A stretch of DNA of 64,000 bases. It comes from an uncultured Solirubrobacterales bacterium (GTDB lineage: Bacteria; Actinomycetota; Thermoleophilia; Solirubrobacterales; 70-9). Both the position numbers and the translations under genes were made by a program. The DNA is taken from contig CAWFRG010000001.1 in the NCBI GenBank assembly GCA_963818205.1, forward strand, positions 9,597 to 73,596, in the 5' to 3' direction. This document shows, in pieces, positions 28,544-62,940 of this stretch (position 1 is its first letter; the number at the start of each line of letters is the position of its first letter). The notes below the pieces were generated by a model. It was given only the letters and a program-made list of their open reading frames with translations, was not told where the DNA came from and did not search any database.

Positions 28544-29377
28544 ATGCGTGGGCTCCTGGCTGCCTTCACCGGCCTGCTGCTGGTGATCGGGGTCGCCGCC
28601 TGCGGAGGCGGCGGCGATGACGGAGACGAGAGCGAGCAGCAGCGGTTCGACCTCGTGATCGGCGATCCGGCTCCGCTCAGCGGTGACCTCGCCGAGCTCG
28701 GCCCCTCGGCCGAGAAGGCGACCGATCTCGCCCTCGACCAGATCAACTCGGCGATCAGGGAGACGGGCGCTGAGGTGTCCGTCGAGATCGTGCACGGCAT
28801 CGCCGGCGGCGCCCCCGAGGCCGCGGCCCAAGCCGCAGCACGCATGGTGCAGGCCGACGACGCGAGCTGCCTGGTCGGGGGCTGGACCCCCGAGGACACG
28901 CTGGAGATCGCGCAGTCGGTCTCGATTCCCGACGGCGTCCTTCAGATCTCCCCCACCCCCAGCGACGAGCAGGTCACTGCGCTGGAGGACGACGAGTTGG
29001 TCAACAGTGTCGCCCCCGCTACCGGAGCCTTCGGCCAGGAGTCGGCCGCCTTCGATCAGCTCTTCGACTCCTCCGAGCCGACCGATGTCGAGCAGGCCCC
29101 CTTCGCCGCGGACGCCTTCGACGCGACGATCCTCTGCTATCTCGCCGCGGTCGCCGCCGGCTCGGCGGACGGCAAGGAGATGGCCCTGATGCTGATCGAC
29201 AACACCGCGCCAGCGGGCACCGAGTACAGCTGGCAGGAGCTCCCGGATGCGGTCAAGGCGCTCGAGGCCGGCGAGGACATCAACTACATGGGGGCATCCG
29301 GACCGATCGACATGGACGAGAACGGCGACGCCTCGGCGAGCAGCTCGACTACGGGCGACAGCACCAGCTCCGAGTGA
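28544..29377 (+). CDS. type I periplasmic-binding-fold (LivJ-like) lipoprotein, internally shortened remnant
   Basis: Lipobox VAACGG. N-terminal PLSGDLAELGPSAEKATDLALDQIN and C-terminal INYMGASGPIDMDENGD match branched-chain amino acid binding proteins, but about 130 aa of the middle of the fold appear to be missing and the last 14 aa are Ser/Thr junk. Confidence 0.5.
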   Translation: MRGLLAAFTGLLLVIGVAACGGGGDDGDESEQQRFDLVIGDPAPLSGDLAELGPSAEKATDLALDQINSAIRETGAEVSVEIVHGIAGGAPEAAAQAAARMVQADDASCLVGGWTPEDTLEIAQSVSIPDGVLQISPTPSDEQVTALEDDELVNSVAPATGAFGQESAAFDQLFDSSEPTDVEQAPFAADAFDATILCYLAAVAAGSADGKEMALMLIDNTAPAGTEYSWQELPDAVKALEAGEDINYMGASGPIDMDENGDASASSSTTGDSTSSE

Positions 29378-29682: not shown

Positions 29683-30882
29683 ATGAGACGAACGCTGCCT
29701 CTGCTCGCCATCCTGCTGATCGCGCTGCTCGCCGCGCCGGCGAGCGCCCCTGCGATCGTCGGCGGGGCGGGGCACAACAAGCCGACGAAGAATCTGGAGG
29801 CCGCGTACAAGATCGCGCTCTACCTGCGCTCAGTCAGCGCGGACGGCTGCTATCCGCCCCCACGCAAGCTGGCCAAGGCAATCCACAGGCTCGATCCGAA
29901 ACTCAAAGTGCGCGTCGCACGGAGCCTGCGCTCGGTCCGCCGCCGGGGCATCGTCTACATCCTGCGGCAGGGCTCGAACTGCAACCGGGTCCGCATGGCC
30001 TGGCTGAGCCCGAGAGGTCTCTACGTCCTCGACTCCGCCTCGGGAAACGTCAGGGTGCACGGAAAGCACGGGCCGCGAACGCACCCGGGTCAGAGCGGAC
30101 CGGCCCGGCAGGTGAGGCTCGTGAGCAGGAGCTTCAGGTTGCAAGGTCCCGATGACACCCAGCGCCTCGACACGCTGTGCCCGCGCAGATCGTTTCCCCT
30201 GGGCGGCGGGATGATCGCCTCGCCTGGACCCAGCGCCAACGGGGAGGGAGCCTATCCACACTCCTACGAGCGCCTCGGAGCGCAGCGCGGCTGGCACATC
30301 AACGTCATTCTCTACGACCCCAATCGCAGCTCGACCACCCCTCGCGATATCACCATCCAGACCGTATGCGGCCGGTTCCTCAGGCCGTCTAATCCGACTC
30401 CCCACGCGACGATCTTCATCAAGTCGGGCGAGACCAAGTCCGCGACGGCCAGCTGCCCCAAGGGCCAGTTCCTGATCGCGGGGGGCTTTAACCGCACCAA
30501 CTTCGACAGCACCGGTGGCAACTACATCACCGAGTCCCGGGCGGACGGGCCGAGGGCCTGGCGGGTCACCGGCTCGGCCTTCGGCGGCAGCGGCGGCGGC
30601 GAGCTGACCGCGATCGCCTACTGCGTCAAGCACAGGGGACCGATCCTGACCGAGGTCTCAGCCTCCGCCCCAGTCCCGTTCGGCGCAACGGCCACGGCCA
30701 CCACGCCGCCCTGCCCGCCCGGCCTCAGACTGACATCCACGGGCTTCAGCGCGTCGCCGAGCGCCCTCTTTGCGGGCAGCTCGCTCAACCCGGACGGCAC
30801 CACCACCGCGACGGCGGTCGGCCACTTCGCCGCGGCGCCGAGTCTCACCGCGTACGGCTACTGCCTGCGGGCGAGGCGCTGA
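29683..30882 (+). CDS. secreted hypothetical protein with three Cys-bracketed repeats
   Basis: Signal peptide MRRTLPLLAILLIALLAAPASA. Three units each open with CPxxxxxxxGG(G)(F/M) and close with a Cys: TLCPRRSFPLGGGM...QTVCG, ASCPKGQFLIAGGF...IAYCV, PPCPPGLRLTSTGF...YGYCL. GC is slightly below the local level. Confidence 0.6.
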   Translation: MRRTLPLLAILLIALLAAPASAPAIVGGAGHNKPTKNLEAAYKIALYLRSVSADGCYPPPRKLAKAIHRLDPKLKVRVARSLRSVRRRGIVYILRQGSNCNRVRMAWLSPRGLYVLDSASGNVRVHGKHGPRTHPGQSGPARQVRLVSRSFRLQGPDDTQRLDTLCPRRSFPLGGGMIASPGPSANGEGAYPHSYERLGAQRGWHINVILYDPNRSSTTPRDITIQTVCGRFLRPSNPTPHATIFIKSGETKSATASCPKGQFLIAGGFNRTNFDSTGGNYITESRADGPRAWRVTGSAFGGSGGGELTAIAYCVKHRGPILTEVSASAPVPFGATATATTPPCPPGLRLTSTGFSASPSALFAGSSLNPDGTTTATAVGHFAAAPSLTAYGYCLRARR

Positions 30883-31025
30883 GGCGCCCGCAGGCCCTCA
30901 GCCGATGTTGACCATCACGAGGCAGGTCCGGCCGCTTTCCCCCCGGTGACGGTCTCTCAGCGGCGTGCGCGCACCGCTGTAGGCGATGTCCGCGCGGCGG
31001 TTGAGCGAGTACAGCAGCGCCTTAG

Positions 31026-32987
31026 TCAGCGGATCAACCGAACTTCCAGCGGCGGCGCCAGGAGCGCCCCCGCTCCGTCCGCGAGGGCGAGGATCCGGGC
31101 GACGTAGGCGCGGGTCTCGGCATAGGGCACGCAGGAGCAGGCTCCGACCGCGCCGGAGCCCGCGTTGTAGGCGGCGAGGGCGAGCGGCACCGAGTGAAAG
31201 CGCCGGAGGAGGTCCGACATCAGGTGCGCCTGGGAGTCGATCGCGGCGACCGGGTCGAACGGATCGCGAAGGCCGTACCCGGCGGCGGTCCCGGGCATGA
31301 ACTGGGCGATCCCCTGGGCGCCGGCCGGCGAGACCGCCTCCGGGTTGAAGCCAGACTCCGCCATCAGCTGCGCCGCGAGCAACCCCGGCGAGACGTTCCA
31401 GCGCGCCGCCGAGCGGATGATCGGGTCGCGGAAGCGGGCGGGGACGAAGGAGGGCAGCCCAGGCGCCCCCTCCCGCGCCCCGGAGACGGCTGTGCCGACC
31501 GCGTTTCCGGCGCCCGAACAGGGCGGCGGACCGCGGTCGAAGCCGAAATGCCAGGCCTCCCAGGAATAGCGGCGGACGAAGCCGAAGCGAGGCGCGTTCG
31601 CGGCCAGCCAGCCGTAGGCGGAGGCGGGTCCGAGGTCGAGCTCGGTGGCGCAGCGGTGCAGCGAGTGGCCCGGCGGGGCGACCCAGTGAGGGTCGGGGTG
31701 CCGGGCGAAGAGCTCCGCCTGCTCGGCGTCGGATCGAAACCCCGAGCTGACCACCAACGAATGTCCCGCGCGCCTCGCCGCCGCCGCCATCCGGTCATAG
31801 GCCGCGGCGACGTCCGGCCGCATCCCCTCGCCGTTGCGGTAGACCAGCGGCCCCGAGTAGCCCCCTCCGCTCGCCACCCCCGGCATCCCCGTCCAGGAAC
31901 CGGCGGGAGGGGCTGCCTCGGCGACGGCGGAGGCGGCGACCTCGATCGGGCGGCTCCCGGCCGCCTCGAGTCGCTCCCCGCCCGGAAGCCCCTCGGGTTC
32001 GATCTCGGCGCTCACCCGGGCGCGCACCCGCAGCGGCGGCTCCCCGCTGAGGTCGGGAAAGTCGATCCGCAGACGGGCCGGATCGACGCCGTTGCGGCGA
32101 GCGGCGTCGGTGGCCGCCGCCCGGGCGCGGCTGAGATAGGCGACGCGGGAGAGGCGCCGCGGATTGAGGGTCCCGTCCGGGAGCGTCCGCGGCTCGGCCA
32201 GCCGCGGCATGTCGTCGCGCATGCTGCGGGCGGCCGAGAGCGCCGCCAGGTCGGCAGCCCGCTGCACCCGGCCCTTTCCGGTCACCGCCCCGCCGATCGC
32301 GGCGAGCAGCAGCGCCACCATGATCAGGATCGTGCCCGCGCCGAGCAGCGCCGGCAGAGCCTGACCGCGCTCGCCGGGGCGCTCCGCGCCGCGATCTGCA
32401 CCGATCCCGAGGAGGGCCGCGGCGATCCCCTTCGCCACGCTCGACCGGCGTCCGCCGGGGCGGGCCCCGGCGAGGGCTCGCCGCGCCGCAAATGGCGAGG
32501 GAGTGGCCGAGGCGACCTTTACTCCCAGGCCTCGAGCCCGGAGCTGGTCAACGGCGAGCGCCGCCAGCGAGCGCTCCCGCGGCAGCTCGACCACGATCAG
32601 GCCTCCGAGCGCCCCGATCTCGTCCGAATCGAGCGCCGGAACCCAGAGGGCGGCGGGCAAATGCGCGACCACCAGCTCCGCCCCGCCCTCCAGCATCGTC
32701 TCGCCGAGCGCGTCGAGCGGCTGGCCACCGGTGCCGAGTGCGAGGTGACAGAGGTGGCCGCGTGCCGAACCCGACCAGCCCGCGATTCGCAGGGAATCCT
32801 CCAGCTCTCGGGCGGCCGGGGTCGAGAGCAGGGTCGCCCCCCGGCGCCGGCTGCCCTCCGCGACCTCGGCCAGCAGGGTGCGGGCGCCGGTCGCCGCGGC
32901 GGCCTCGACCGCGACCGCCGCGGCCAGGGCGAGGCTTCCGCGCCGGCCGGTGCCGGTGCCGGTGGCGAGGATCGTCGCCGCGGTCAC
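31026..32987 (-). CDS. multidomain protein: unknown N-domain + TadG/TadE-like pseudopilin segment + VanY/M15 D,D-peptidase + SLT lytic transglycosylase
   Basis: aa ~205-255: GQALPALLGAGTILIMVALLLAAIGG...RAADLAALSAARS. aa ~410-485: SGFRSDAEQAELF...PGHSLHRCATELD...SWEAWHF. aa ~520-630: AQLMAESGFNPEAVSPAGAQGIAQFMPGT...AAYNAGSGAV. The GTG start overlaps the upstream stop (GTGA). High GC3 throughout. Confidence 0.8.
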   Translation of the reverse strand: MTAATILATGTGTGRRGSLALAAAVAVEAAAATGARTLLAEVAEGSRRRGATLLSTPAARELEDSLRIAGWSGSARGHLCHLALGTGGQPLDALGETMLEGGAELVVAHLPAALWVPALDSDEIGALGGLIVVELPRERSLAALAVDQLRARGLGVKVASATPSPFAARRALAGARPGGRRSSVAKGIAAALLGIGADRGAERPGERGQALPALLGAGTILIMVALLLAAIGGAVTGKGRVQRAADLAALSAARSMRDDMPRLAEPRTLPDGTLNPRRLSRVAYLSRARAAATDAARRNGVDPARLRIDFPDLSGEPPLRVRARVSAEIEPEGLPGGERLEAAGSRPIEVAASAVAEAAPPAGSWTGMPGVASGGGYSGPLVYRNGEGMRPDVAAAYDRMAAAARRAGHSLVVSSGFRSDAEQAELFARHPDPHWVAPPGHSLHRCATELDLGPASAYGWLAANAPRFGFVRRYSWEAWHFGFDRGPPPCSGAGNAVGTAVSGAREGAPGLPSFVPARFRDPIIRSAARWNVSPGLLAAQLMAESGFNPEAVSPAGAQGIAQFMPGTAAGYGLRDPFDPVAAIDSQAHLMSDLLRRFHSVPLALAAYNAGSGAVGACSCVPYAETRAYVARILALADGAGALLAPPLEVRLIR

Positions 32988-33340
32988 CTCCGCGCCTCTC
33001 TTGCGGGACGCGCCCAGGCTTCGGAGCTGACCTCGAGCCGCTCCGCCAGGGCAGCCAGGGGCGCGGGCGGCCGCAGCTCCACGATCACCCGGCCGGCGTC
33101 AGAACTGACCGTGGCGCGACCGCGGGCCCAGGCGGGGAGCGACTCCCGCGCTGCCTGCTCCGGGTCGTTGCCCGCCGCCGCCGCCAGAGCACCCGCCTCG
33201 GCGGCGCCGTCGGCGAGGGTCAGGGAGTAGCCGGTGAGCAGAAGCTGGAGGGCGACGAATCCGGCCAGCGCCAGTGCCGGCAGCCCAGCGAGCAGCTCCA
33301 CCGAAGCCTGGCCTCCCTCATGGTCAGCGCGAGGAGCCAT
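32984..33340 (-). CDS. TadE-like (Flp pilus assembly pseudopilin) protein
   Basis: MAPRADHEGGQASVELLAGLPALALAGFVALQLLL: TadE N-terminal motif plus a hydrophobic helix. About 118 aa. Confidence 0.7.
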   Translation of the reverse strand: MAPRADHEGGQASVELLAGLPALALAGFVALQLLLTGYSLTLADGAAEAGALAAAAGNDPEQAARESLPAWARGRATVSSDAGRVIVELRPPAPLAALAERLEVSSEAWARPAREARR

Positions 33341-33713
33341 CCGGATCGGGCTCGAGCCTGGACGCCGCCACGATCGAACCCAGGGAGACGCCGGGCAACA
33401 GTGAGGGCACCGCGACCTTGACCCGGACACCGTCCTCGTTCGTAACCGCGGCGTCCTCGCGCAGCCGACCCGGAAGCGCCCGCCGCGCCGCGGCCTCGCC
33501 ATCGCCGCCGACGTGCTCCGCCCGGGCGCCGGCGCGGGCGGCGTTGCCGGCCGTCCACAGCGCCCAGCCGGCGGCGGCCGCCTGGGCGGCGAGCAACACG
33601 CAGACCGCGAGCGCCGGCAGGATCGCGACCAGCTCCACCGAGGCCTGCCCCGGGGCCCCGCAGATCCGGCGGCGGTGTTTGTGGCCGCCGCATGTGTAGC
33701 TCTCGATCGCCAC
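33324..33713 (-). CDS. TadE-like (Flp pilus assembly pseudopilin) protein
   Basis: ...GAPGQASVELVAILPALAVCVLLAAQAAAAGWALW: the same motif class. 129 aa. Confidence 0.7.
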   Translation of the reverse strand: MAIESYTCGGHKHRRRICGAPGQASVELVAILPALAVCVLLAAQAAAAGWALWTAGNAARAGARAEHVGGDGEAAARRALPGRLREDAAVTNEDGVRVKVAVPSLLPGVSLGSIVAASRLEPDPDGSSR

Positions 33714-33785
33714 CTCGCGAACCTAGGAGCGGGCGGCGCGCGGAAAGCGCGCGGATCGTGCCGAGTCAGTGGTGTTGGGTGACCC

Positions 33786-34142
33786 CTAGGTGTAGGTGCT
33801 GGCCTCGCGCCAGACCAAGAAGATCGCCAGCAGCGCCCCGAGCATCAGCACCAGCCAGACGGCGAACCCGCCGGCCCACTCGGTGAACTCCTCGAAGCCG
33901 ACGATCAGGAGCGCAATCGCGCCGACGGCGCCGAAGAGGATCGCCCGGCGGCCATCGGAGAGGGTCAGCATCGTCATCTGCTGCTCGCGGTAGAGGCGGT
34001 AGACGAAGAAGGCGATTGCCGCGAGGAAGGCCATCGAGATCGCCGTCAACACCGTCTCCGCGGCGGCGCCGCCGCCGGGCAAGACCGCGATCGCCAGCGC
34101 CACCACGGCGATGATCGCGACGTTCCTCAGCGTCGGCAGCAT
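33786..34142 (-). CDS. hypothetical four-TM membrane protein
   Basis: MLPTLRNVAIIAVVALAIAVLPGG... has four hydrophobic segments. The internal ATG at 34142 was chosen. Same strand as, and directly upstream of, the TadE-like genes. Confidence 0.5.
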   Translation of the reverse strand: MLPTLRNVAIIAVVALAIAVLPGGGAAAETVLTAISMAFLAAIAFFVYRLYREQQMTMLTLSDGRRAILFGAVGAIALLIVGFEEFTEWAGGFAVWLVLMLGALLAIFLVWREASTYT

Positions 34143-34253
34143 CGATGAGATTCTACGGACGCCGGGCACCCGCTCCGCTTCGCGGCCATTATCAGATCTG
34201 CAACCCCATTTCCTCGCTACTAGCGAATTTTTGATCCGCATCGAGCGAGGTTC

Positions 34254-34282
34254 TTGTCATCCTTCGCCCCCGCCGGTAGGGT
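34254..34282 (+). promoter_or_regulatory. candidate sigma-70-type promoter for the HD-domain gene
   Basis: TTGTCA (34254-34259), 17-nt spacer, TAGGGT (34277-34282, TANNNT class). Immediately followed by the direct repeat TTCACAC-CG-TTTACAC (34284-34299). Confidence 0.35.
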
Positions 34283-34326
34283 CTTCACACCGTTTACACA
34301 ACGCCCCGCGTGCTACCAAGAGAGTG

Positions 34327-34926
34327 ATGGCGAACATCTCGACGCGAGTCGAGCCTCGTACCGACTCCGATCTGGCCACCACGGCCCTCCGCTTCGCGCG
34401 CCGCGCCCATCTCGGCCAGCATCGCAAGCAGACCCACGAGCAGTTCGTCGAGCACCCGATCGCGGTGGCGAAGCTGATCTCGGAGGAGGGCTTGAACGGC
34501 TCGATCCTCGCCGCTGCCTACCTCCACGACGTGGTCGAGAAGTCCGAGGTCGAGCCCGCCGAGATCAGGGAGCGCTTCGGGCCGGAGGTCGCGGGGATGG
34601 TCGAGGCGCTCACCGACGACGACTCGGTCGAGGGCTACGTCGAGCGCAAGCGGGCACTGCGCCGCCAGGTGATCCACTCCAGTCAGGAGTCGGTGCTGAT
34701 CTACGCGGCCGACCGGGTCGCCAACATGCGCGACTGGCGCAAGGTGGCGCCGGAGCAGCGTACGGAGATCGGGGAGCGCCTCGGCACCACCCTGGACGAA
34801 CGGCTCGACCTGTGGGCCGAGGATCTCGACGAACTCAGCGCCTACGACCCCGAGCTCCCCTTCCTCGCCGAGATCGAGTTGGAGCTGCGGGCCCTGCGCA
34901 GCGAAGCGCCCGATCGCCCGAGCTAG
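34327..34926 (+). CDS. HD domain protein, RelA/SpoT-type (p)ppGpp hydrolase fold (small alarmone hydrolase-like)
   Basis: ALRFARRAHLGQHRKQTHEQFVEHPIAVAKLI...AAYLHDVVEKS...GPEVAGMVEALT. Confidence 0.75.
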   Translation: MANISTRVEPRTDSDLATTALRFARRAHLGQHRKQTHEQFVEHPIAVAKLISEEGLNGSILAAAYLHDVVEKSEVEPAEIRERFGPEVAGMVEALTDDDSVEGYVERKRALRRQVIHSSQESVLIYAADRVANMRDWRKVAPEQRTEIGERLGTTLDERLDLWAEDLDELSAYDPELPFLAEIELELRALRSEAPDRPS

Positions 34927-36196: not shown

Positions 36197-38410
36197 CTAG
36201 CCGGCGACCGGCGCCCTCTCCTCCGAGCGCGCTGCGTGCACCTTCATCAGTTCGCGCTGGAGGTTCCGGGGCTCGTTTCCGTTGGGCGTGAGCCGCGACC
36301 AGAGCCCGTCGGGCTGGAGCCGCCAGGAGCTGGTGTTGTCGGCGAAAGAGCGGTCGAGGACGTCGCTGAGCTGATCCTTGAGCGCCTCCTCGGTGACCGG
36401 CGCCAGCAGCTCGACCCGCTTGTAGAGGTTGCGGGGCATCAGGTCGGCCGAGCCGATGAAGATCCGCTGCTCGTCGGGTCGCTCGAAGGAGAAGATCCGT
36501 GAGTGCTCGAGGAAGCGATCGACGATCGAGACCACGTTGATGTTCTCCGAGACGCCGGGGACGCCGGGGCGCAGGGCGCAGATGCCGCGGATGTTGAGCT
36601 CGACCGCGACGCCCGCCTGCGAGGCTCGGTAGAGCGCCCGGATACAGGGCGCGTCGAGGAGCGAGTTCATCTTCAGCCGGATCCGCGCCGGGCGCTCAGG
36701 CGAATGCGCCTCGATCGTCCGCTCGATCTCGGTGAGGATCCCCTCCTTCAGGTTGAAGGGCGCGACCAGCACCTTGCGGTAGCCCTCCGGCCTCGCGTAG
36801 CCGGTCAGGTAGTTGAACATCTCGGCGATGTCCTCGCCGATCTCGACGTCGGCGGTGAAGAGGCCGATGTCGGTGTAGAGGCGGGCCGTCTTCGGGTTGT
36901 AGTTGCCGGTGCCGATGTGGATGTAGTGGCGGACGCCGTCGCCCTCGCGGCGGGCGATGAGCACGCACTTGACGTGGGTCTTCAGCCCGGGGATCCCGTA
37001 GACGACGTGAACGCCGGCCTCCTCGAGCGACTTCGCCCAGCGGATGTTGGCGCTCTCGTCGAAGCGCGCCTTCAGCTCCACCAGGCAGACCGCCTGCTTG
37101 CCCCGCTCCGAGGCCTCGATCAGGGCCGGAACCAGCGGCGAGTCGGCGCTGGTCCGGTAGACGGTCTGCTTGATCGCCAGCACATCGGGGTCATCGACCG
37201 CCTGACGGACGAAGCGCTCGACCGAGCCGGCGAATGAGTCGTAGGGGTGGTGGACGAGGATGTCGCCCTTGCGCATCGCCGCCAGCACGTCGACCTCGCG
37301 GTGGGTCTGGCCCTGCTGAAGCTGCGGTGGGGTCACCGGCTGCCACCGCGGATAGCGGAGCTCGCGAAACCCCGGTAGCGAGACGATGTCCATCAGGTCG
37401 TCGAGCCCGAGCAGGCCGGCCTCCTCGTAGACCTGGCGCTCCTCGAGCTTCAGCGCCTCGACCAGCACCCCGCGCAGGCCGGGGTCCATGTCGGGAGCGA
37501 CCTCGATCCGGACCACCTCGCCGAAGCGGCGCCGCCGGACCTCCTCCTCGACCGCCTGGAGGAGATCGTCGGCCTCGTCCGAGACGTCGTAGTCGGTGTC
37601 CCGGGTCACCCGGAAGAGGGACTGGTGAACGATCTCCATCCCCGGGAACAGATCGTCGAGGTTCGCCGTGATCACCTGCTCGAGCGGCACGAAGGTGAGC
37701 CCGTCGCCGATCGAGAGGAAGCGGCGGAGGAGCTCCTTCGGCACCTTCACCCTCGCGGTCACCTCCTCGTCCTTCTCCGGGTTGCGGAGCAGCACCGCGA
37801 TGCTCAGCGAGAGGTTGGAGATGTAGGGGAAGGGCCGGCCGCGGCCGATCACCAGCGGAGTGAGCGCCGGGAACACCTGACGCTGGAAGAGTCGCTCGAT
37901 TTCCTCTCGCTCCTCGGCGCTGGCGTCGCTGAGCGAGATCACCCGGATTCCGTGCTCGGCGAGGCCGGGGCGAAGATCGTCCGAGAAGCAGCGCCCCAGC
38001 CGCTCACGCAGCTCCGCCACCCGGTCGCGAATCCGGTCGATCACCTCGCTCGGCGCCATCCCGTCCGCTCCCCGCGCGTCGATCTTCCCCTCGACCGACT
38101 CATGGAGCCCGGCGACCCGGACCATGAAGAACTCGTCGAGGTTGTCCTCGTAGATCGCGGCGAACTTGAGCCTCTCCAGCAGCGGGAGACGAGGATCCTC
38201 GGCCAGCTGGAGGACACGATCATTGAAGTCGAGCCAGGAGAGCTCGCGGTTGAAGTAGAGGGAGCTGTCGGTGAGATCGGCCTCGGCGCCGCGCTCCGGC
38301 GGGACCCTGGCGGTTACCGCCATCTGTCCGTCGCCGGCAGGTCGCTCCCGCCCGTCGCCCGAGGGCTGCTCGGTGGCTTCGGTGCTTTTCTCAGCGGTTT
38401 CGTCGGTCAT
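36197..38410 (-). CDS. ppk: polyphosphate kinase 1
   Basis: About 737 aa: YFNRELSWLDFNDRVLQLA, FAAIYEDNLDEFFMVRV, two PLD-like HKD regions (LKTHVKCVLIARRE..., FLEHSRIFSF). ATG 38410 was chosen. Confidence 0.95.
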   Translation of the reverse strand: MTDETAEKSTEATEQPSGDGRERPAGDGQMAVTARVPPERGAEADLTDSSLYFNRELSWLDFNDRVLQLAEDPRLPLLERLKFAAIYEDNLDEFFMVRVAGLHESVEGKIDARGADGMAPSEVIDRIRDRVAELRERLGRCFSDDLRPGLAEHGIRVISLSDASAEEREEIERLFQRQVFPALTPLVIGRGRPFPYISNLSLSIAVLLRNPEKDEEVTARVKVPKELLRRFLSIGDGLTFVPLEQVITANLDDLFPGMEIVHQSLFRVTRDTDYDVSDEADDLLQAVEEEVRRRRFGEVVRIEVAPDMDPGLRGVLVEALKLEERQVYEEAGLLGLDDLMDIVSLPGFRELRYPRWQPVTPPQLQQGQTHREVDVLAAMRKGDILVHHPYDSFAGSVERFVRQAVDDPDVLAIKQTVYRTSADSPLVPALIEASERGKQAVCLVELKARFDESANIRWAKSLEEAGVHVVYGIPGLKTHVKCVLIARREGDGVRHYIHIGTGNYNPKTARLYTDIGLFTADVEIGEDIAEMFNYLTGYARPEGYRKVLVAPFNLKEGILTEIERTIEAHSPERPARIRLKMNSLLDAPCIRALYRASQAGVAVELNIRGICALRPGVPGVSENINVVSIVDRFLEHSRIFSFERPDEQRIFIGSADLMPRNLYKRVELLAPVTEEALKDQLSDVLDRSFADNTSSWRLQPDGLWSRLTPNGNEPRNLQRELMKVHAARSEERAPVAG

Positions 38411-38490
38411 CGGCTTTGCCGCCCCTGCCAGGCGTCTGGTCAATGCTAGTGGCACACCAGCAGCGCGGAGCATCGATTCGATCAGCGGCC

Positions 38491-39315: not shown

Positions 39316-40495
39316 CTATGCGACGTGGAGGATGCGGGGACCGGCCTCTTCCTCGAGCGCGGGAGGCTCGAGCAGCGCCCCGTAGCCGTCGGCGAGCTCG
39401 CCCATCGCCGCCTCCCAGGTGCGGGAGCGCGCGGCGGCGATCGCCCGGCGGCCGAGCTTCGCCCGCCAGGCGGGGGCGTCGGCCATCTGAAGAACGGCGG
39501 CGGCGAGGATCTCCGGGTCGGGCTCGCAGAGGCGGCCGGTCTCCCCGTCGATCACGATCGAGGTCGGACCGCCCTCGGCGACCGCGACGGCCGGGACGCC
39601 GCTGGCACCGGCCTCGACCAGGACCTGGCCGAAGGTATCGGTGCGGCTGCAGAAGAGGAAGATGTCGGCGCTCGCGTAGGCCCGGGGAAGGTCATCGCCA
39701 CCGAGCCAGCCGAGGAAGGTCGCCGAGTCGCCGAGTCGCTCGCGCAGCACCTCCTCCTCGGGCCCGCCGCCGGCCAGCAGCAGGTGCAGCCTCGGGTCGG
39801 CCTCGCGCGCGCGAAGGAAGGAATTGGCGAGCAAGTCGATTCCCTTCTCCTTGGTGAGGCGGCCCGCGTAGAGCACCTTGACCTCGCCGGGGTAGGCGTC
39901 GGCCTGGGAGAGGGCGGGATCGAAGCGAGCGGTGTCAACGCCGCGGCCCCAGCGCCCGATCCGGTCGCGCTCGACGCCGAGGCGGGCGAGCGAGTCGTCG
40001 CTTGCCGGGCTCGGCGAGAGGACGCGGCCGCACTGGCGATAGAAGAGCGAGAGGGCGATCTGCATGCCCCGCTCCAGCTCGGGCGAGGCCGAGCGCATTC
40101 CCGCGTAGACGCCGAGCTCGGTGTGCCAGCTGCCGAGCAGCGGCAGCTCCATGATCCGCGCGATCAGGGTGGCGACCACGCCGGCCGGGCCGGGTGCGGT
40201 GACGTGGACGAGCTCGAAGCGGCCCTCCGCCAGCACCTCGACCATCCCGGGGAGGCTGGGAATCCCGATCTCGAGCCCGGCGTAGAAGGGGATCTCGACC
40301 TCGGCGACCGCGGGCAGCCGCAGGTCGACCTCGCGGTCGGTGCCGATCACCTCGACCTCGTAGCCGGGGACGCCGAGCTCGCGGATCTCGCTCGATCGTG
40401 TGGCTCACCCCGTGGACGCCGCCGATCGCGTCGGCGATCAGCGCGATCCGCTTCGGACCCTCGACCGGGTTGAGCTTCGCCTTTTCCTTCCCCAA
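39316..40495 (-). pseudogene. GT4-family glycosyltransferase with one frame change near 40385-40392
   Basis: KRIALIADAIGGVHGVSHTIE (one frame), then EIRELGVPGYEVEVIGTDREVDL...LVHVTAPGPAG...LYAGRLTKEKGIDLL...LFCSRTDTFGQVLVEAGASGVPAVA (EX7E-type GT-B C-domain). TTG start at 40495 is tentative. Confidence 0.7.
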
Positions 40496-40585
40496 GAAAG
40501 CGGCTGCCGGTGCATACGGGACGGCCGGGATCGCGGCTCGAAGAGCTCGCGGCCGGTCTCCACCGCGCGGGCGGCAAGATCCTCT

Positions 40586-41669
40586 CATCGCCCTCGCTTC
40601 GAAGCCTCGACGGTCCGCTCGACCACCTCGCGCAGACGGCGATCATGGGCGCGGCGGGCGCGGCGGGCCAGCTCGGCATGGCTGAACTCGTCGTCCTGCA
40701 TGTAGGTCGACCAGGGCGCGGCCGCGCATCTCGCAGGCCGACCGAGTCGACGAAGGCGTCGAGGAGGGCGCGGGCGTCTTCGGGGCCGAGGTCGCCGGCG
40801 ACCGCCCCTTGCGGACGTTGCCCTCGCTCATCACCCGCTCGGCCATCTTCAGGACCGCGTCGGGATCCGTCATCTCGCAGTCCTCGGCCGCTCGGCAGCG
40901 GGCTTCCATCAGGGCAGCCGCCGGCGCTCGCGTCCTTGAGAAGAGCGCCCGGGTAGAGAGGGCCATCGCCGCGTGCGCCCACTTGGCGGCGCTCCCCTGC
41001 TCGCCGCGCGCCTCGGCGCGACCCTCGCGGACGTGGCGCAGAAACTCTTCCGGCGTGGCCGAGGGCGGGGTCTCGGTGAAGGTCCGCCCGATGTCCACGC
41101 CGGCGTGATCGTCGGAGCCGCCGGTGCCGGTGCCGCCGTGGGTCTCGATGTAGATCGCGGCGGGCATGTTGAGCTCGCGGGCGCGGGAGCCGTTGCGGGT
41201 CTCCCAGACGGGGAAGAGCTCGGCCAGGCGGCGGCGGTGCGCGCGGCGGTCAGCGGCGCCTCGACGGCATAGAAGGGATGTGCGAGCGAGCAGGCAATCT
41301 CGATCGGAGTGCAGGTACTCGGCGCAGGCCTCGAGATCGCGAGCGTTCTCCTGAAGCCAGCTCGTGATCGTCGGGGGTGATGCCGAGGCAGAGGACGTGG
41401 ACGGCCTGGGGCTCGCCGCGGAACCAGGCGGTGAGCTCTTCGGAGATGAAGACGTCGGGCGCATCGGCGATCTCGAGGCAGCCGGCGATCGTGTCGTGAT
41501 CGGTGATCGTCACGAACTCCATCCCGCGCCGCTTGGCGAGCTCGTAGACCTCCTCGGGAGGCGTCGCGCACTCCGGCAGCCCGAGGCTGCGCTGGATCCC
41601 CAGCTTCGAGATCTCAGAGGCGGTCGAGTGACAGTGCAGATCCACCCGATTGGTGGCAATCGGGTTCAT
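40586..41669 (-). pseudogene. PHP (polymerase/histidinol phosphatase) domain protein with at least five frame changes
   Basis: MNPIATNRVDLHCHSTASE...FVTITDHDTIAG...VHVLCLGITPDDHE, then pieces spread over all three frames: WLQENARDLEACAEYLHSDR / IACSLAHPFYAVEAPLTAA / HRRRLAELFPVWETRNG...GGSDDHAG... / AVAGDLGPEDARALLDAFVDSVGL / YMQDDEFSHAELARRARRAHDRRLREVVE. Confidence 0.65.
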
Positions 41670-41912
41670 CTGGCCTCCCCGTGGATTGGCTCCCATTTCA
41701 CTGCCAAGGGTGCGCGATTGCAGGCGAAAACCGGTTACCGGGTGGTCAACCGTGCGTAAAGAGGTCGTGAAGTGCGGCGCTGCCAGACTGGCTCAATCGC
41801 CGTGATGTCCGGGAGAGGAACGGAGGACGCGCTCGCGCTCGCCCGCGACCGGCTCGCTCTCGCACTCGGCGCCGCCGGCCCTCGTGCTCACTGTCGCGAG
41901 GGATGACCGCGC

Positions 41913-44087
41913 GTGGCTCCGGCGCTGGAGCTGTGGGCCTGCCCGGCGACCGCACGGGACGAGCTGATCACCCTCACCGAGGGCGTCCTCCCCCACGAGG
42001 AGCGCGGCCCGCCGGAGCCCATCGAGATCGCCGCCGCTCAGCGGACCGGCGAGACGATCGAGCTGGAGGCGAGCTCGGCCTCGCCCCCGGGTCGCCGCCC
42101 GGATCTCGACCCCGGCGCCCGACCGGGTGCTGATCGAGCTCGAGCCCCTCGAAGGCCGGCCACTCCGCCTCGGCGCGCGCTGGCCGCTGGCCGAGGGAGA
42201 GCGCCTCACCGGCCTCGGGGCGCGGCACGGCCTTCACTTCGACCAGCGCGGCCGCGCAGGTGGCCCTCGGCGCCGACCGGCGCTACACCGGCCCCGACTG
42301 CCCGCCCGAGTTCCTCGAGGACGGGGGGATCCCGCAGGGCGACTACGCCCCGGTGCCCTGGCTGCTCTCCTCGGCGGGGTGGTCCGCCTGGCTCGAGACC
42401 TCGGGGCCCGGAGTCGAGGCCGACCTCGCGCGAGGACCGTGCCTCCCTCTCACTCCGGGTGGCCGCCGGCCCGCTCCGCCTTCACCTCTTCTGCCAACCC
42501 ACCCCGGCGGCCCGCCTGCGGGCCTTCGTCGTGAGACCGGCCGGCCGGCGATCCTGCCCGAGTGGGCCTACGGGCACTGGAAGAGCCGCGACGTCTACGA
42601 GCACCAGGAGGACGTCGAGGACGACTGGCGGGGGTACCGCGACAACGAGCTGCCACTCGACGCGATCGTCATCGACTCTCCGTGGGAGACCCAGTACAAC
42701 ACCTGGCGGTTCAACCCCCACCAGTTCCCCGATGCCCCCGGGCTGGTCCGGGGGATGCGCGACGATGGCGTGCGGACGGTGGTCTGGGTGACGCCCTGGG
42801 TCAACCTCGAGTCGATCGACGGCCAGCGCCCGCCCGACACCGCCTCGGAGAAGCTGCATCGCGAGCCCGCGGAGAACTACGCCGAGGGCGCCGAGGCGGG
42901 CCACTATGTCCGCGCCGCCGACGGCGGGCCCACGTGGGGCGCTGGTGGATGGGGACCGGCTCGATCGTCGACTTCACCTCCGACGGGGCCCGGAAGTGGT
43001 GGCGGGACCTGGCCCGGAACGTGTTCGAGCTCGGGGTCGAGGGGGTCAAGGCGGACGACGGCGAGGGCTACTACTTTCCGCCGGACTTCGCTGCTCGCCG
43101 ACGGCCGCAATGGCGCTCGAGTTCGCCTGGGAGTACGGGCGGCTCTACCGAGAGACCACCCAGAGAGGCCCTCGACGAGGTCCACGGCGACGGCCGGGGG
43201 GTTGTCTTCGGGCGCTCGGGCTGGTCCGGCCAGCAGGCGGTGGGGATGCTCTGGGGCGGAGACCAGGCCTCCGACTTCTGGTCGATGCGGGCTCTGGTCG
43301 CCTCCCTGCTGACCGCCGCCGCCAGCGGCTTCTCCAACCTCTCGCACGACGTCGGCGGCTACCTGGGGCGCGCGGCTCGCCGAGCGCTGCGAGCCCGAGC
43401 TGCTGGTTCGCTGGGCCCAGCTCGGGGCGCTGTCGCCGCTGATGCAGGCTCACGGCCGCTTCCAGCAGGAGGCCTGGACCTACGACCAGCGCGGTGCTCG
43501 ACCTCTACCGGGAGGCCGTCCTCCTGCACGAGCGGCTGGTCCCCTACATCCGGGCGGCGGCGGCGACCGCCCGGCGCAGCGGGCTGCCGATCATGCGGCC
43601 GCTCTGCCTCGCCGATCCCGGCGACCCGGAAGGCTGGGCGATCGCCGACTGCTTTCTCTTCGGGCCGGCCCTCTGGGTAGCGCCGGTGCTCGACGAGGGG
43701 GCGGTGGAACGGCGCACCTACCTGCCGCGGGGGGACTGGATCTGCTGGTGGAGCGGCGAGCGGCTCGAGGGCGGCCGCTGGATCGAGGCGGAGGCGCCGC
43801 TCGAGCGGATCCCGCTCTGGGTGCGAGCCGGCTCGATCGTCGTCACCTACCCGGAATCCGAGATCGCCCGCGGGCTCGGCGAGGACGACCCGCTCAGGCC
43901 CTGGAAGCGACGCTCTGGGGCGAGCCCCGGCTCGGCCACACCGCCGCCCGGCTCGCCGACGGAAGCCGGATCAGTTGGCGTCCGCGGCATCGTTTCAGCC
44001 ACTCCGGCGATGGAACGGTGGGTCAGTTGGAGGGGCGGCGACTGGTCCGCCGAGCCCGAGCGCCGGGTCGCCTTCGAGAGGCGCTGA
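41913..44087 (+). pseudogene. glycoside hydrolase family 31 (alpha-glucosidase/xylosidase-like) with at least six frame changes
   Basis: Recognisable pieces lie in three frames: PEWAYGHWKSRDVYEHQEDVEDDWRGYRDNELPLDAIVIDSPWETQYNTWRFN, VWVTPWVN, FTSDGARKWWRDL...GVEGVKADDGEG, VVFGRSGWSGQQAVGMLWGGDQASDFWSMRALV...SHDVGGY, LLHERLVPYIRAAA...LPRGDWICWWSGE. Confidence 0.7.
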
Positions 44088-44765
44088 GCCGGGCGCGGTC
44101 CTTCTCCTGCTCGGCACGCTCTGCGCGAGCGGCGGCTTCCTGGCGGGCTTGTTCGGCGGCCTCCAGCCGCTCCTGCGCCTTCGCGGCCTGCTTGGCCGCC
44201 CGCCGCGCCTCTCGGGCGCGATCGAGAGACTTTCCACCGACCGCTCGAGGCGCGGCCAGGTGCCGGTCTCCTCCTGGCGGCGCCAGAAGGCGACGAAGCG
44301 GTCGGAGAGCAGCTGGCGCCGCGCCTCCAGGTAGACGGCGAGCACGTCGAGCCCGCGATAGGCGGTCCGGTGGGGCGACTGGGCGGCGAGGCGCGGATCG
44401 AGGTCGGGGGTCTCCCCCGCCTTCTTCCGGACAACCTGGGCGTCGGCTCGCTGCAGCTCCTTCAGGTGCCGGCGGACGCGAGGGAGCATCACGTCGCAGT
44501 CGTGGATCTCCCCGAGGATGTCCTGGAGGTCCCGGGCCCGGCGGCGGGCGGTGTCGGCCGGACGGCCGAAGCAGAACCCCGTGACCTCGAGCACGTAGCG
44601 CAACCGCTTGGCGGCGATCCGCATGTCGTGCTGGTCCTTGGTCCGGCCCTCCAAGGCCTTGGGGGCGAAGGAGAGCATCTCGTCGAGCCGCACCTGGATG
44701 ATCCGGGCGGCGTTCTCACCGAGCGCCCGGCTCGGGTCGAGCTTCTTCACCGGGCGCGCCTTCAC
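43995..44765 (-). CDS. CHAD domain protein (second half-domain); the C-terminus is probably frameshifted
   Basis: DQHDMRIAAKRLRYVLEVTGFCFG...DLQDILGEIHDCDV. After about 44215 the printed frame turns Pro/Arg-rich, whereas the neighbouring frame reads ARRAAKQAAKAQERLEAAEQARQEAAARAERAEQEKDRAR. Confidence 0.7.
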   Translation of the reverse strand: MKARPVKKLDPSRALGENAARIIQVRLDEMLSFAPKALEGRTKDQHDMRIAAKRLRYVLEVTGFCFGRPADTARRRARDLQDILGEIHDCDVMLPRVRRHLKELQRADAQVVRKKAGETPDLDPRLAAQSPHRTAYRGLDVLAVYLEARRQLLSDRFVAFWRRQEETGTWPRLERSVESLSIAPERRGGRPSRPRRRRSGWRPPNKPARKPPLAQSVPSRRRTAPGSAPLEGDPALGLGGPVAAPPTDPPFHRRSG

Positions 44766-45247
44766 ACCCTCTCCTCCCGCGCTGCGGCGACCAGCTCGTT
44801 GAGGCTCTCGCGGATCGCGGTCAGGTTCTGCTCCTCGACCAGCGGCGCGAGCGCCAGATTCGCCTCCGCCTGCTCCTCGCGGAGGCGCTCGATCAAGGAG
44901 GAGATCCCGCGCCGGTCCGGCGCCGCCATCTGGTCGTTGAAGCCGTGCATCGCGGAGATCGCCACGTCTCGGTCGCGGCGCTCGCCGAGGCCATCGGCCA
45001 GCCGTTTGACCTCACCCAGCGCCCGCGCGTAGGGCTTCCGGGGGAAGCACGGCTCGAACACCTCGAGGGCGGCGCGGAGGCGCCTGGTGGCAACCCGCAT
45101 GTCGTGGACGCGCTCGATATCGCCGGTGTCGAGCACGCCGCGAGCGTGCGCCGTGAGCTCGCCGGAGCGGACCGAGATGATCTTTGCGGCCGCCTCGGCG
45201 TAGCTGTCGTCGGCGGAGAGATCGTTGATCGGCTTCGGCTTCGCCAT
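44762..45247 (-). CDS. CHAD domain protein (first half-domain)
   Basis: ERVHDMRVATRRLRAALEVFEPCF...LGERRDRDV. The stop overlaps the next start (GTGA at 44762-44765). Confidence 0.7.
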   Translation of the reverse strand: MAKPKPINDLSADDSYAEAAAKIISVRSGELTAHARGVLDTGDIERVHDMRVATRRLRAALEVFEPCFPRKPYARALGEVKRLADGLGERRDRDVAISAMHGFNDQMAAPDRRGISSLIERLREEQAEANLALAPLVEEQNLTAIRESLNELVAAAREERV

Positions 45248-47166: not shown

Positions 47167-48078
47167 CTAGGCCGCTAGCGCCTTCGACGGCGAGCCGTTG
47201 GCGCTGCCGTTGTTGAGCAGGGTGAGGATGATCCCCTCGCGGAGGCCGCCCTTGCCGATCTGCAGGGGCCGGCCGAGGAGCTGCGAGAACTTCTCCAGCA
47301 GCAAGACCCCGGCGGGCAGCAGCTTCACCCGGCGGGAGTCGAGCTCGAAGCGCTTCGCCACCTCCGATATCTCGGCGCTGGAGAGGACCCTGACCGCCCG
47401 CTCGAGCGTCTCGTACTCGAGCACCGCGCCGACCAGTGTCCGCAGCGAGGTGGCGCTGCCGCCGACCGCCACCGCCTGGTCGGCCGGCTCCAGCTCGACC
47501 CCGTCGAAGAAATCAGAGATGTGGTCGCGCAGGTTGCGGATCTCGGCGGCGGAGGGTGGGTCGCTCTCCAGGTGATCTTCGGTGAGCAGACCGGAGCCGA
47601 TCTTGAAGGAGTGCACCTTGGAGACGCCCCCGGCGACGGTCCCGAAGATCGCCTCGGATGAGCCGCCGCCGACGTCGACCACCGCAACCGTGCCCTCGAC
47701 CGGGTGGCCCAGCGACTTGGTGGCGCCGATGAAAGCGAGCCTTCCCTCCTCCTCTTCGCTGAGGACGTCGACCCGGACTCCGGCCGCCTCCTCGATCTCC
47801 CGGACAACCTTGGCGCGGTTCTTCGACTCGCGGATCGCCGCCGTCGCCACCGCCTTGATCACCTCGGCGCCCATCTCCTCCGCGAGGCGAACCTGGGTGG
47901 TCACCGCCTCGGCGACCTCGGCGACCTTCTCGGCGGTGATCGACCCGTCCTTGCGCGCGTCCTTGCCGATCCGGGTGTACGCACGCTGCTCCATCACCTT
48001 GCGGAGCTGGCCCTCCTGTGGCTCGGCAACCAAGAGGCGAGTGGTGTTGGAGCCGATATCGATCGCCCCGCAGAGCAC
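47167..48078 (-). CDS. Ppx/GppA family phosphatase (exopolyphosphatase / pppGpp phosphohydrolase), short form
   Basis: AIDIGSNTTRLLVAE...VVDVGGGSSE...GKGGLREG: ASKHA-fold N-terminal domains only (303 aa). Confidence 0.85.
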   Translation of the reverse strand: MLCGAIDIGSNTTRLLVAEPQEGQLRKVMEQRAYTRIGKDARKDGSITAEKVAEVAEAVTTQVRLAEEMGAEVIKAVATAAIRESKNRAKVVREIEEAAGVRVDVLSEEEEGRLAFIGATKSLGHPVEGTVAVVDVGGGSSEAIFGTVAGGVSKVHSFKIGSGLLTEDHLESDPPSAAEIRNLRDHISDFFDGVELEPADQAVAVGGSATSLRTLVGAVLEYETLERAVRVLSSAEISEVAKRFELDSRRVKLLPAGVLLLEKFSQLLGRPLQIGKGGLREGIILTLLNNGSANGSPSKALAA

Positions 48079-59451: not shown

Positions 59452-59535
59452 AGGTACTCCTTTCGGTCTCAAACGAGGACCGCGGGAGTCTCGCGACGGC
59501 GCGGCTGGGTCGTGTGACTAGCGCGTGATCAGGCG

Positions 59536-59552
59536 GTAAACGAGTTGTAAAC
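59536..59552 (-). promoter_or_regulatory. candidate PHO-box-like direct repeat upstream of pstS
   Basis: On the pstS strand: TGTTTACAACTCGTTTACCG. Two GTTTAC hexamers with 11-nt (one helical turn) periodicity, about 85-100 nt upstream of the pstS start. Confidence 0.35.
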
Positions 59553-59652
59553 ACGCTCAAGAGCAGGGAAAACCGTGCGGACTACCCGGGACTCGGTACT
59601 CCAAACCCGATCCGGTCCACCTCTCCTCCGAACTTGCGCCCGGAGCGAGAAC

Positions 59653-59680
59653 GACGGCCGCGCCTGCTGGCGCGGCCGTC
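59653..59680 (-). terminator. strong GC hairpin downstream of the secreted two-module protein gene
   Basis: GACGGCCGCGCC-TGCT-GGCGCGGCCGTC: perfect 12-bp stem with a 4-nt loop, about 75 nt after the stop at 59757. No clear U-tract. Confidence 0.55.
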
Positions 59681-59756
59681 GTCTCGAAAGGAGTGGCTTT
59701 CGCCTTGATGCGAGGGTCCTCCGAAGCGAACCGAGGAGGAACCCGCTTTGTGATGG

Positions 59757-61125: not shown

Positions 61126-61296
61126 TTGAGAGGCTCCTTCACGATTGCGTTTGCATCCGCCTAGGCGGACGGACGCGCGGCAGTCTCTCTGCGCGCGACG
61201 GCCCGGATGTTGCGATCCCGTGTACAGGATGTAAACGGGATCCGGTAGAGCTCGCCCGGAAGGATCCTCAGTCCTGATGCAACAGGCCCGCGAAAC

Positions 61297-62903: not shown

Positions 62904-62940
62904 TATCGACCATCACTTTCGTTGAAGTGTCGTTGGTTCG

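Follow-up and report, generated by a model that had tools for sequence, protein, structure and literature searches.

A conserved operon of Solirubrobacterales encodes two TadE-like proteins and a large protein that joins a predicted ParA-like domain and a pilin-type segment to two peptidoglycan hydrolase domains

We analyzed a stretch of 64,000 nucleotides (nt) from an uncultured Solirubrobacterales bacterium (contig CAWFRG010000001.1, positions 9,597 to 73,596; G+C content of about 70%), here called the window, and describe an operon of three overlapping genes on its minus strand, named g1, g2, and g3. Genes g1 and g2 encode small proteins with the N-terminal motif of TadE-type minor pilins. 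Gene g3 encodes a protein of 653 amino acids (aa) with four parts: a predicted pseudo-ParA domain (the N-domain), a TadG-like pilin-type segment, a VanY peptidase domain, and an SLT lytic transglycosylase domain. Sequence comparison indicates that this four-part fusion is stable across a large clade and is not an artifact of an insertion or deletion (indel). Tentatively, we read the module as a priming or tip complex of minor pilins, in which the hydrolases of the cap would open the thick wall of the cell itself and for which the filament machinery would be encoded elsewhere.

RESULTS

Three overlapping genes encode two small proteins and a four-part protein

The three minus-strand open reading frames (ORFs) lie where a preliminary description of this DNA had placed them. 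Gene g1 (33324-33713) encodes TadE-like minor pilin or pseudopilin 1, a product of 129 aa in which the motif G|QASVEL is followed by a hydrophobic helix. Gene g2 (32984-33340) is a paralogue of g1 and encodes TadE-like minor pilin or pseudopilin 2, with 118 aa counted from the ATG at 33340. The 653-aa protein is encoded by g3 (31026-32987). Genes g1 and g2 overlap by 17 nt (33324-33340), and the stop of g2 and the start of g3 share the 4 nt GTGA (32984-32987). All motifs quoted in the preliminary description were found in the translations: GQASVEL in the products of both g1 and g2, and RAADLAALSAARS, SGFRS..EQ, PGHSLH....ELD, EAWHF, AESGFNP, GIAQFMPGT, and AYNAG in the large protein.

The G+C content at third codon positions (GC3) is 0.90-0.91 in g1 and g3, as in genuine genes of the window. 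A 678-aa ORF on the opposite strand (31194-33230) failed the filter comparing third with second codon positions (GC3/GC2). Because of this failure, and because homologues match the minus-strand product, it was taken as a shadow ORF. The start-less frame at 30898-31025, previously considered a possible frameshifted C-terminal extension of the large protein, was rejected as such: all 22 aligned homologues end, as the window protein does, at ...LEVRL(V/I)x, and the peptide of this frame had no blastn or tblastn match in 86 related loci. The segment is a spacer between two convergent genes and lies next to a hairpin.

Both wall-cutting domains retain their catalytic residues

The VanY/M15 and SLT cores, first recognized by their motifs, were confirmed by profile searches. 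PF02557 matched residues 388-480 (31548-31826, minus strand), the VanY or M15B zinc peptidase domain, with 49.9 bits versus a cut-off of 25 (E = 3.6e-13). PF01464 matched residues 522-615 (31143-31424, minus strand), the SLT lytic transglycosylase domain of family GH23, with 72.5 bits versus a cut-off of 21.3 (E = 2.8e-20). Catalytic residues are intact in both domains. In an alignment of 22 homologues, whose starts and ends are conserved, every zinc ligand of the M15B domain and its catalytic Glu (H444, D451, E477, and H480) are invariant, and so is the catalytic E544 of the SLT domain. The SLT motifs E544-S545, G559-(I/L)-A-Q, and Y607-N-A-G are invariant or nearly so. The peptidase motifs S-x-H-x6-D and E-x-W-H were present in 85 of 85 loci, and the enzyme motifs were found in all loci holding the full domain.

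The Protein Data Bank (PDB) relatives of the VanY domain are VanY-type D-Ala-D-Ala carboxypeptidases; those of the SLT domain are Slt70-type enzymes, MltE/EmtA, and the SLT domain of a phage tape-measure protein. The best NCBIfam match of the SLT domain was NF047373 (the flagellar lytic transglycosylase BB0259 of Borrelia), which covered the SLT core only (63.7 bits versus a cut-off of 234). Judging by their residues, both hydrolases appear to be catalytically complete.

A pilin-type segment with a conserved Gly-Gln junction precedes the enzymes

Residues 208-237 of the large protein (32277-32366, minus strand) comprise the junction G208|Q209 and a single transmembrane helix; they are prepilin-like and have no Glu5. 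The Tad model PF13400 matched residues 208-254 with 25.9 bits (cut-off, 22.3) in an alignment that begins exactly at G208, in agreement with the earlier assignment of a TadG/TadE-like hydrophobic segment. When the isolated segment was searched, the score was 28.7 bits, and 11 of 12 diverse orthologues matched. TIGR03816 (Rv3654c family) aligned with residues 206-259 at 29.8-32.7 bits, under its cut-off of 50.95 and over model positions 1-54 of 109 only.

The Gly-Gln junction is kept in 84 of the 85 junctions compared, fused or split. It is followed by about 22 hydrophobic residues and then by TGKGRVQRAADLAA, with no Glu at position +5. In the window protein, 207 residues precede the hydrophobic segment, and the short leader of the TadG type is absent there. 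A split orthologue begins with MRDRRFERG|QAAPAVLGG, that is, with a 9-residue basic leader ending in Gly.

Residues 238-372 (31872-32276, minus strand) complete the long alpha-1 helix and add a second helix and a sheet of three strands, together resembling a pilin head. In the full-length AlphaFold2 (AF2) model, a helix at 211-263 and a helix at 281-298 are followed by strands at 306-359, which form the sheet, with predicted local distance difference test (pLDDT) values of about 80-90; the overall pLDDT of this model is 59, and its enzyme half is poor. The model suggests that residues 211-359 have the general shape of a pilin, with a long helix and a small alpha/beta head. PDB profile matches of the head were discarded as chance matches to a transmembrane helix. 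Since the large protein has one transmembrane helix and its N-domain has no signal peptide, we infer that the N-domain is cytoplasmic and the enzymes are outside.

The N-domain has a predicted ParA/MinD fold and no Walker A lysine

Residues 1-200 (32388-32987, minus strand) form a predicted cytoplasmic domain of the ParA/MinD fold, an alpha/beta fold of the SIMIBI class. An AF2 model of this part was built with 21 homologues and reached a pLDDT of 87.7 and a predicted template modeling score (pTM) of 0.88, with alternating strands and helices. The top Foldseek matches were all NTPases of the ParA/MinD class, namely, Soj, ParF, BcsQ, NifH, and MinD, joined by a ParA family ATPase and FlhG when the full-length model was the query (E values of 2e-4 to 3e-3; query-normalized TM-scores of 0.37-0.59 for the N-domain model). 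The search with the full-length model again gave only ParA-like matches. Residues 1-200 had no Pfam or NCBIfam match, and a profile search of PDB sequences was empty.

At the P-loop position, after strand 1, homologues read TG(T/S)(D/G)R(R/G)xS, with no lysine, versus KGGxGK[ST], the deviant Walker A motif expected there. The Gly-rich loop ATGTGTGRRGS of the window protein sits at this position of the fold, and the corresponding loop of stand-alone N-domain homologues is just as degenerate. Strand 105-110 ends with H109-L-P (LAVVHLPG) and no Asp, where the assignment to Walker B follows strand order and not a residue-level structural alignment. Because the Walker A lysine is absent, the modeled domain is probably a pseudo-ATPase of the ParA/MinD fold.

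A degenerate TadZ/ParA-like module had been considered possible for this region. Its ParA-like character is upheld at the level of the fold, since the Foldseek matches agree and a loop without lysine occupies the P-loop position; its likeness to TadZ is not, as no sequence likeness was found. Comparison by hhalign with the TadZ proteins of L087 and L088, two loci with complete Tad systems (see below), gave a probability of 0.1%, no TadZ was among the top Foldseek matches, and there was no PDB profile match, so the domain was rejected as a TadZ.

The N-domain ends in an amphipathic helix (residues 179-193, 32409-32453) with the consensus ARRIARRLLGLGR. This helix is also present in stand-alone N-domain proteins, and its sequence appears to resemble the membrane-targeting helix of MinD. 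The TGTGTG part of the Gly-rich loop is encoded by three tandem ACCGGC units (32946-32963, minus strand). All 21 aligned homologues, the closest included, are two residues shorter at this loop (e.g., ATGSGRRGS), which suggests that a hexanucleotide repeat has expanded in the window.

The two small proteins share the TadE-type N terminus

The TadE-type character of the g1 and g2 products was corroborated by a motif, G|QAS(V/I)E(L/F), that is conserved in about 80 species and by profile alignment with the TadE proteins of genuine Tad loci. The motif (G/A)|(Q/T)A(S/A)xE(L/F) was detected in 160 of 162 small proteins from these species, with Glu at position +5 in every motif found. When 155 TadE-like sequences of the module were compared with the TadE proteins of L087 and L088 by hhalign, they aligned over 59 columns with a probability of 87% (E = 3.7e-6), suggesting a moderate likeness to genuine TadE. 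The N termini of the small proteins and of the large protein also align in register in a profile comparison, albeit weakly (E = 1e-3).

The expected match to TadE family models was obtained in part. On PF07811, the g1 product scored 21.9 bits, under the cut-off of 22.9, and the g2 product had no Pfam TadE match. In contrast, NF041390 (TadE_Rv3655c) aligned with both over nearly its full length, covering model positions 1-93 of 101 for g1 (E = 3.4e-3) and 1-98 of 101 for g2 (E = 7.7e-4); the scores for the two small proteins were 17.9 and 20.0 bits versus a cut-off of 40.

In nearly all of the approximately 80 loci, a small polytopic membrane protein is encoded on the same strand directly 5' of the TadE-like genes. 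In the window, its gene is located at 33786-34142 (minus strand; about 118 aa from a conserved Met), and the longest ORF reaches 34241. The protein is conserved, with the motifs RN(V/I)AII...PGGG in the alignments, has no Pfam match, and is probably the product of the first gene of the module, which would then comprise four genes. It was considered as a hidden prepilin peptidase of the TadV type (A24) and rejected, as neither a Pfam match nor a conserved Asp pair or GxGD was found.

The module is conserved in fused and split forms

More than 120 cluster representatives match the 653-aa protein with 67-93% identity and 98-100% coverage. The few that are named come from metagenome-assembled genomes (MAGs) of Solirubrobacterales, and the architecture is already annotated automatically by Pfam domains in public data. 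A scan of one genome per species revealed at least 556 stretches encoding a relative. The best 80 of these are nearly all from MAGs labeled Solirubrobacterales, Thermoleophilia, or Actinomycetes, the closest being 94% identical. One related locus, L046 (CAWJDB010000002.1), belongs to a MAG labeled Pirellulales and contains the module with 59% identity and full synteny; this label is probably a binning or labeling error and not an occurrence outside Actinomycetota.

Gene order was determined by searching a local hidden Markov model of each part against the six-frame ORFs of all loci. In virtually every locus (about 80 species of Solirubrobacterales or related Thermoleophilia), the order on one strand is small membrane protein, TadE-like, TadE-like, N-domain, pilin-like segment, VanY, and SLT. 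A single ORF spans the N-domain and the pilin-like segment in 71 of 85 loci, and about 12 loci are truly split or apparently frameshifted; in about 12% of loci, the N-domain has its own gene, translationally coupled to that of the hydrolase protein. Among 1.84 billion representatives, a profile of residues 1-375 retrieved 622 relatives at E ≤0.001. They occur in three forms: the four-part protein, a stand-alone N-domain (205-230 aa), and a protein of 420-450 aa that starts at the pilin-like segment.

Split versions occupy the same chromosomal site as the fused ones. In locus L005, a 207-aa N-domain gene overlaps (ATGA) a gene whose 439-aa product comprises the pilin-like segment, VanY, and SLT, and in locus L003 (10915-11786), the stand-alone N-domain gene is separated from the hydrolase gene by a PIN-domain gene and a lipoprotein gene. 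Wherever they occur, the pilin-like segment, VanY, and SLT share one ORF or are interrupted by no more than an apparent frameshift. Orthologous loci with separate genes, which the preliminary description had named as an argument against a real fusion, were thus found for the N-domain but not for the link between the pilin-like segment and the enzymes, since this link holds in every locus that has them. Proteins that seemed to consist of the pilin-like segment only were examined as a stand-alone TadG-like family and dismissed, because they are frameshift-truncated copies of the hydrolase protein. The overlapping genes, the same order in about 80 species, and the fusion or fission of the N-domain at the same site suggest that the operon is a unit.

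The module lies among housekeeping genes and apart from Tad machinery

The earlier characterization of the operon as an orphan is supported: Tad machinery was detected neither in the window nor, up to a distance of 10 kb from the module, in 86 related loci. Motif scans, Pfam scans of about 40 ORFs, and phmmer searches with canonical Tad proteins (those of two complete Tad loci) revealed no T2SSE, T2SSF, Flp, A24, RcpC, or TadZ gene in the 64-kb window. Because the 86 loci likewise lack the machinery within 10 kb, being an orphan is a property of the whole clade, at least locally.

The neighborhood of the module is always housekeeping. On one side are ppk, a PhoU-like gene, DUF6328, and an HD domain gene; on the other side are MaoC, cupredoxin, enoyl-CoA hydratase, uvrC, rapZ, an ABC transporter, gap, and pgk. 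Elsewhere in the window, the genes are housekeeping ones as well, with cytochrome c maturation genes, argS, tgt, pgm, tpi, ppx, and pst/phoU.

Phosphate and polyphosphate genes surround the module (36197-38473, 43995-45247, 47167-48078, and 58621-63885). They comprise ppk, ppx, a phosphate-binding protein gene, phoU, and a PhoU-like DUF47 gene, and an ABC-type ATPase motif may represent pstB. For two adjacent ORFs of this neighborhood, synteny with L003 suggests CHAD proteins.

Downstream of g3 and convergent with it, between the module and MaoC, is a plus-strand gene (29683-30882) whose 399-aa product has a signal peptide and matched no Pfam model. No counterpart was called at that position in the related loci L001 or L002. 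A GC-rich hairpin with an 11-bp stem (30863-30895, minus strand), located downstream of g3, overlaps the stop of this gene and is possibly, at weak confidence, a bidirectional terminator. The energy of the 76-nt stretch is unremarkable for its composition (z = -0.87), and a promoter and terminator scan of 30700-34400 gave no signal exceeding shuffled expectation.

Some other genes of the window are interrupted or shortened. A PHP and GT4 gene (39316-41696, minus strand) is distributed over three frames, with frame changes near 41360 and 40700 according to tblastn. It is intact in L001 (765 aa), and L003 has a similar GT4 gene of 751 aa; the window copy is either a pseudogene or affected by assembly indels. 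A Peripla_BP_6 gene (28544-29377, plus strand) lacks about residues 169-301 of the 443-aa orthologue in L002. A gene similar to glycoside hydrolase family 31 (42260-44087, plus strand) is spread over at least two ORFs and frames, and L001 likewise has two genes.

Complete canonical Tad loci are present on two MFD MAG contigs with a GC content of 69-72% (L087, 4939-13495; L088, 5837-14264). The order in L087 is A24 peptidase, Flp, TadE, Tad/TadG, RcpC, ParA/TadZ, T2SSE, and two T2SSF. In L088, no A24 gene was called, and one platform protein is fused to vWA domains. Literature searches for Tad machinery in Solirubrobacterales returned nothing specific, and the genera are not in the supplements of the type IV filament survey. 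A hand-written CpaF consensus query for such machinery retrieved CpaF from other or not-named taxa.

DISCUSSION

A possible role in passage of a filament through the wall

According to our tentative reading, the two small pilins and the large protein would assemble into a priming or tip complex, either of a type IVc (Tad-like) filament or of a short pseudopilus, and a motor encoded elsewhere would assemble the filament. The large subunit would cap the complex because it lacks Glu5, as do tip subunits such as GspK, the tip pseudopilin of type II secretion. With the large subunit at the cap, both hydrolase domains would therefore be at the leading end, where, during fiber growth, they would cleave the glycan strands and trim the stem peptides in the thick wall of the producing cell. 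On the cytoplasmic face, the ParA-like domain would dock the complex to the assembly site in a TadZ-like role. The fused N-domain may stay as an anchor or may be cut off at G208|Q209, and cleavage there would yield two products identical to those of the split-gene lineages.

A more specific version, which we regard as doubtful, is that the large protein is a pilin-like cap with a folded ParA-like domain as its leader. Prepilin peptidase would then cut G208|Q209 to release a TadZ-like docking protein inside and a Glu5-less hydrolase cap outside, and the cap would bore a channel through the wall. The single copy, the core-genome synteny (ppk ... uvrC-rapZ-gap-pgk), and the highly conserved enzyme domains suggest that the activity is self-directed and not weapon-like.

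Several observations weigh against a role in a filament. Motif scans and phmmer revealed neither a motor ATPase nor a platform protein, Flp pilin, or prepilin peptidase, be it in the window or up to 10 kb from the module in the 86 loci (1.65 Mb). The TadE scores of the small proteins fall under the curated cut-offs of PF07811 and NF041390, the pilin-like head had no relative among solved structures in the PDB profile search, and hhalign gave no significant alignment of the large protein to canonical TadG beyond the N-terminal motif. The Tad loci L087 and L088 carry their own TadE, TadG, and TadZ; if Tad loci of Solirubrobacterales resemble them, the module would be superfluous to complete them. 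A folded domain of 200 residues in front of a site for prepilin cleavage is, to our knowledge, unprecedented. Enzymes of the VanY type usually act as carboxypeptidases, trimming stems and not opening cross-links. Finally, universal presence in the core genome suits a housekeeping wall enzyme equally well.

Alternative explanations

Such a housekeeping enzyme could be a stand-alone, membrane-anchored autolysin complex that acts in growth of the cell's own wall, in septum splitting, or in turnover, with the pilin-like segments serving as anchors or partner subunits and with no filament. The cytoplasmic pseudo-ParA/MinD domain would position or gate the outer hydrolases, similarly to FtsEX, which controls hydrolases of the PcsB/RipC type. 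This is the main alternative to our reading. We consider it somewhat unlikely, even though it would account for a module that is universal, single copy, and embedded in core-genome synteny among housekeeping genes, for the highly conserved enzyme domains, and for the absence of filament machinery nearby in the 86 loci. MinD/ParA folds are also typical positioning modules, and the domain ends in the putative MinD-like amphipathic helix. However, anchoring leaves unexplained why Gly -1 and Glu +5 are kept in both small proteins in about 80 species and why the G|Q junction of the large protein is kept, and the split form has a textbook short prepilin leader.

It is improbable that the module is a contact-dependent antibacterial device, in which a hydrolase subunit at the tip of a Tad-type pilus would attack the wall of neighbors, like the Kil tips of Myxococcus. 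Separately encoded TadEFG-like tip operons with modular TadG-like subunits are used in killing (PMC12075869), and both enzyme types occur in wall-piercing proteins of phages and secretion systems. In the module, however, there is one copy per locus with no variable "adaptable" versions, and the enzyme domains are among the most conserved parts. There is no obvious immunity gene, the neighborhood is housekeeping and not an island, and in targets with an outer membrane, the wall would be shielded from the enzymes.

The least credible explanation, already largely refuted and very improbable, is that genes were joined by an assembly indel or that the operon is a decaying remnant of a Tad locus: the window does have broken genes (PHP-GT4 in three frames and the shortened binding-protein gene), frameshifts occur inside the g3 orthologue in some MAG loci, and the N-domain is a separate gene in some lineages, but N-domain and pilin-like segment share one ORF in 71 of 85 loci, more than 120 protein clusters match with 98-100% coverage and 67-93% identity, homologues share the start and the stop, no catalytic residue has been lost, and GC3 reaches 0.90.

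Comparison with known systems

The TadE/F/G-like "tip" operons of Myxococcus form clusters apart from kil, and their large TadG-like subunit has a modular domain (PMC12075869). The KilL/KilM/KilN Tip clusters are similar to the module in that small TadE-type pilins and a large TadG-type protein with an extra part are encoded in one operon, which can be distant from the machinery genes, and in that the N termini are of the prepilin type. In contrast to them, the extra part here is a pair of peptidoglycan hydrolases and not a domain for adhesion or of unknown function, and a ParA-like domain of 200 residues, predicted to be cytoplasmic, precedes the prepilin-like site. Sequence likeness of the large protein to canonical TadG is confined to the N-terminal ~50 residues. 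Other TadG proteins carry vWA-type domains.

For the small proteins and the pilin-type segment, the best NCBIfam models (NF041390 and TIGR03816) are those of Rv3655c and Rv3654c from Mycobacterium tuberculosis, and the order, a small TadE-like gene followed by an Rv3654c-like one, is the same. However, the scores are under the cut-offs, and Rv3654c is small and has no enzyme domains. The mycobacterial pair Rv3655c/Rv3654c lies at the end of the flp-tad locus and adjoins tadZ-tadA-tadB-tadC-flp.

With respect to the predicted N-domain, TadZ/CpaE, MinD, FlhG/FleN, and Soj share the overall fold, the C-terminal amphipathic helix, and the association with pilin-type genes. Unlike TadZ/CpaE and the ParA family, the N-domain has no KGGxGK[ST], no receiver-like N-terminal domain, and no sequence likeness to TadZ, and in most lineages it forms one polypeptide with a membrane protein.

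Wall-cutting enzymes are part of other trans-envelope structures. In FlgJ of beta- and gammaproteobacteria, the flagellar rod cap is fused to a muramidase. FlgJ and Borrelia BB0259 parallel the proposed cap as wall-cutting enzymes that are attached to, or recruited by, the leading end of a growing axial structure that has to pass the peptidoglycan; they differ in belonging to a flagellar type III system and not to a type IV filament, and two enzyme activities are present here. PrgK of pCF10 and TraG of pIP501 are VirB1-like bifunctional hydrolases of Gram-positive conjugation. Like the large protein, they combine an N-terminal membrane anchor with SLT and a peptidase, and they open the thick wall locally for a trans-envelope machine. 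Their peptidase is of the CHAP or LytM type, their anchor is ordinary, and they are encoded within conjugation clusters, whereas the large protein has a pilin-type anchor and an M15B peptidase, and Pfam scans of the window revealed no conjugation genes near the module. The peptidoglycan hydrolase LytF promotes Com pilus extrusion in Streptococcus sanguinis (PMC12424861). For this hydrolase, too, a role in getting a type IV filament across the thick wall of a single-membrane bacterium has been proposed, but it is a separate secreted enzyme of another family with no pilin-like part.

Each kind of component is already known; new is the combination of a modular TadG-like minor pilin, wall hydrolases of the trans-envelope type, and a ParA-like placement module. 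Literature text searches, whose queries did not name the architecture itself, found no paper on it.

Significance

The question of how a filament traverses the thick wall of a single-membrane bacterium is acknowledged to be open (PMC6916266), and the first hint of help by a hydrolase dates from 2025 (PMC12424861). The module provides a testable candidate for wall passage, with a pilin-type subunit that carries glycan- and peptide-cutting enzymes and with two partner pilins, in an abundant soil order. In the actinobacterial systems studied so far, TadZ-like and TadG-like membrane-associated components substitute for each other (PMC6916266); the large protein would unite counterparts of both in one polypeptide. 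The naturally occurring fused and split versions offer a ready comparison for the role of the ParA-like part. If the model of a boring cap with a folded leader is true, the module would be the first device dedicated to opening the wall for a type IV filament in single-membrane bacteria, and its leader would be the first folded-domain prepilin leader. If the link to a filament fails, the module would still be an autolysin of a new type, tethered from the cytoplasm, in a lineage that has been little studied.

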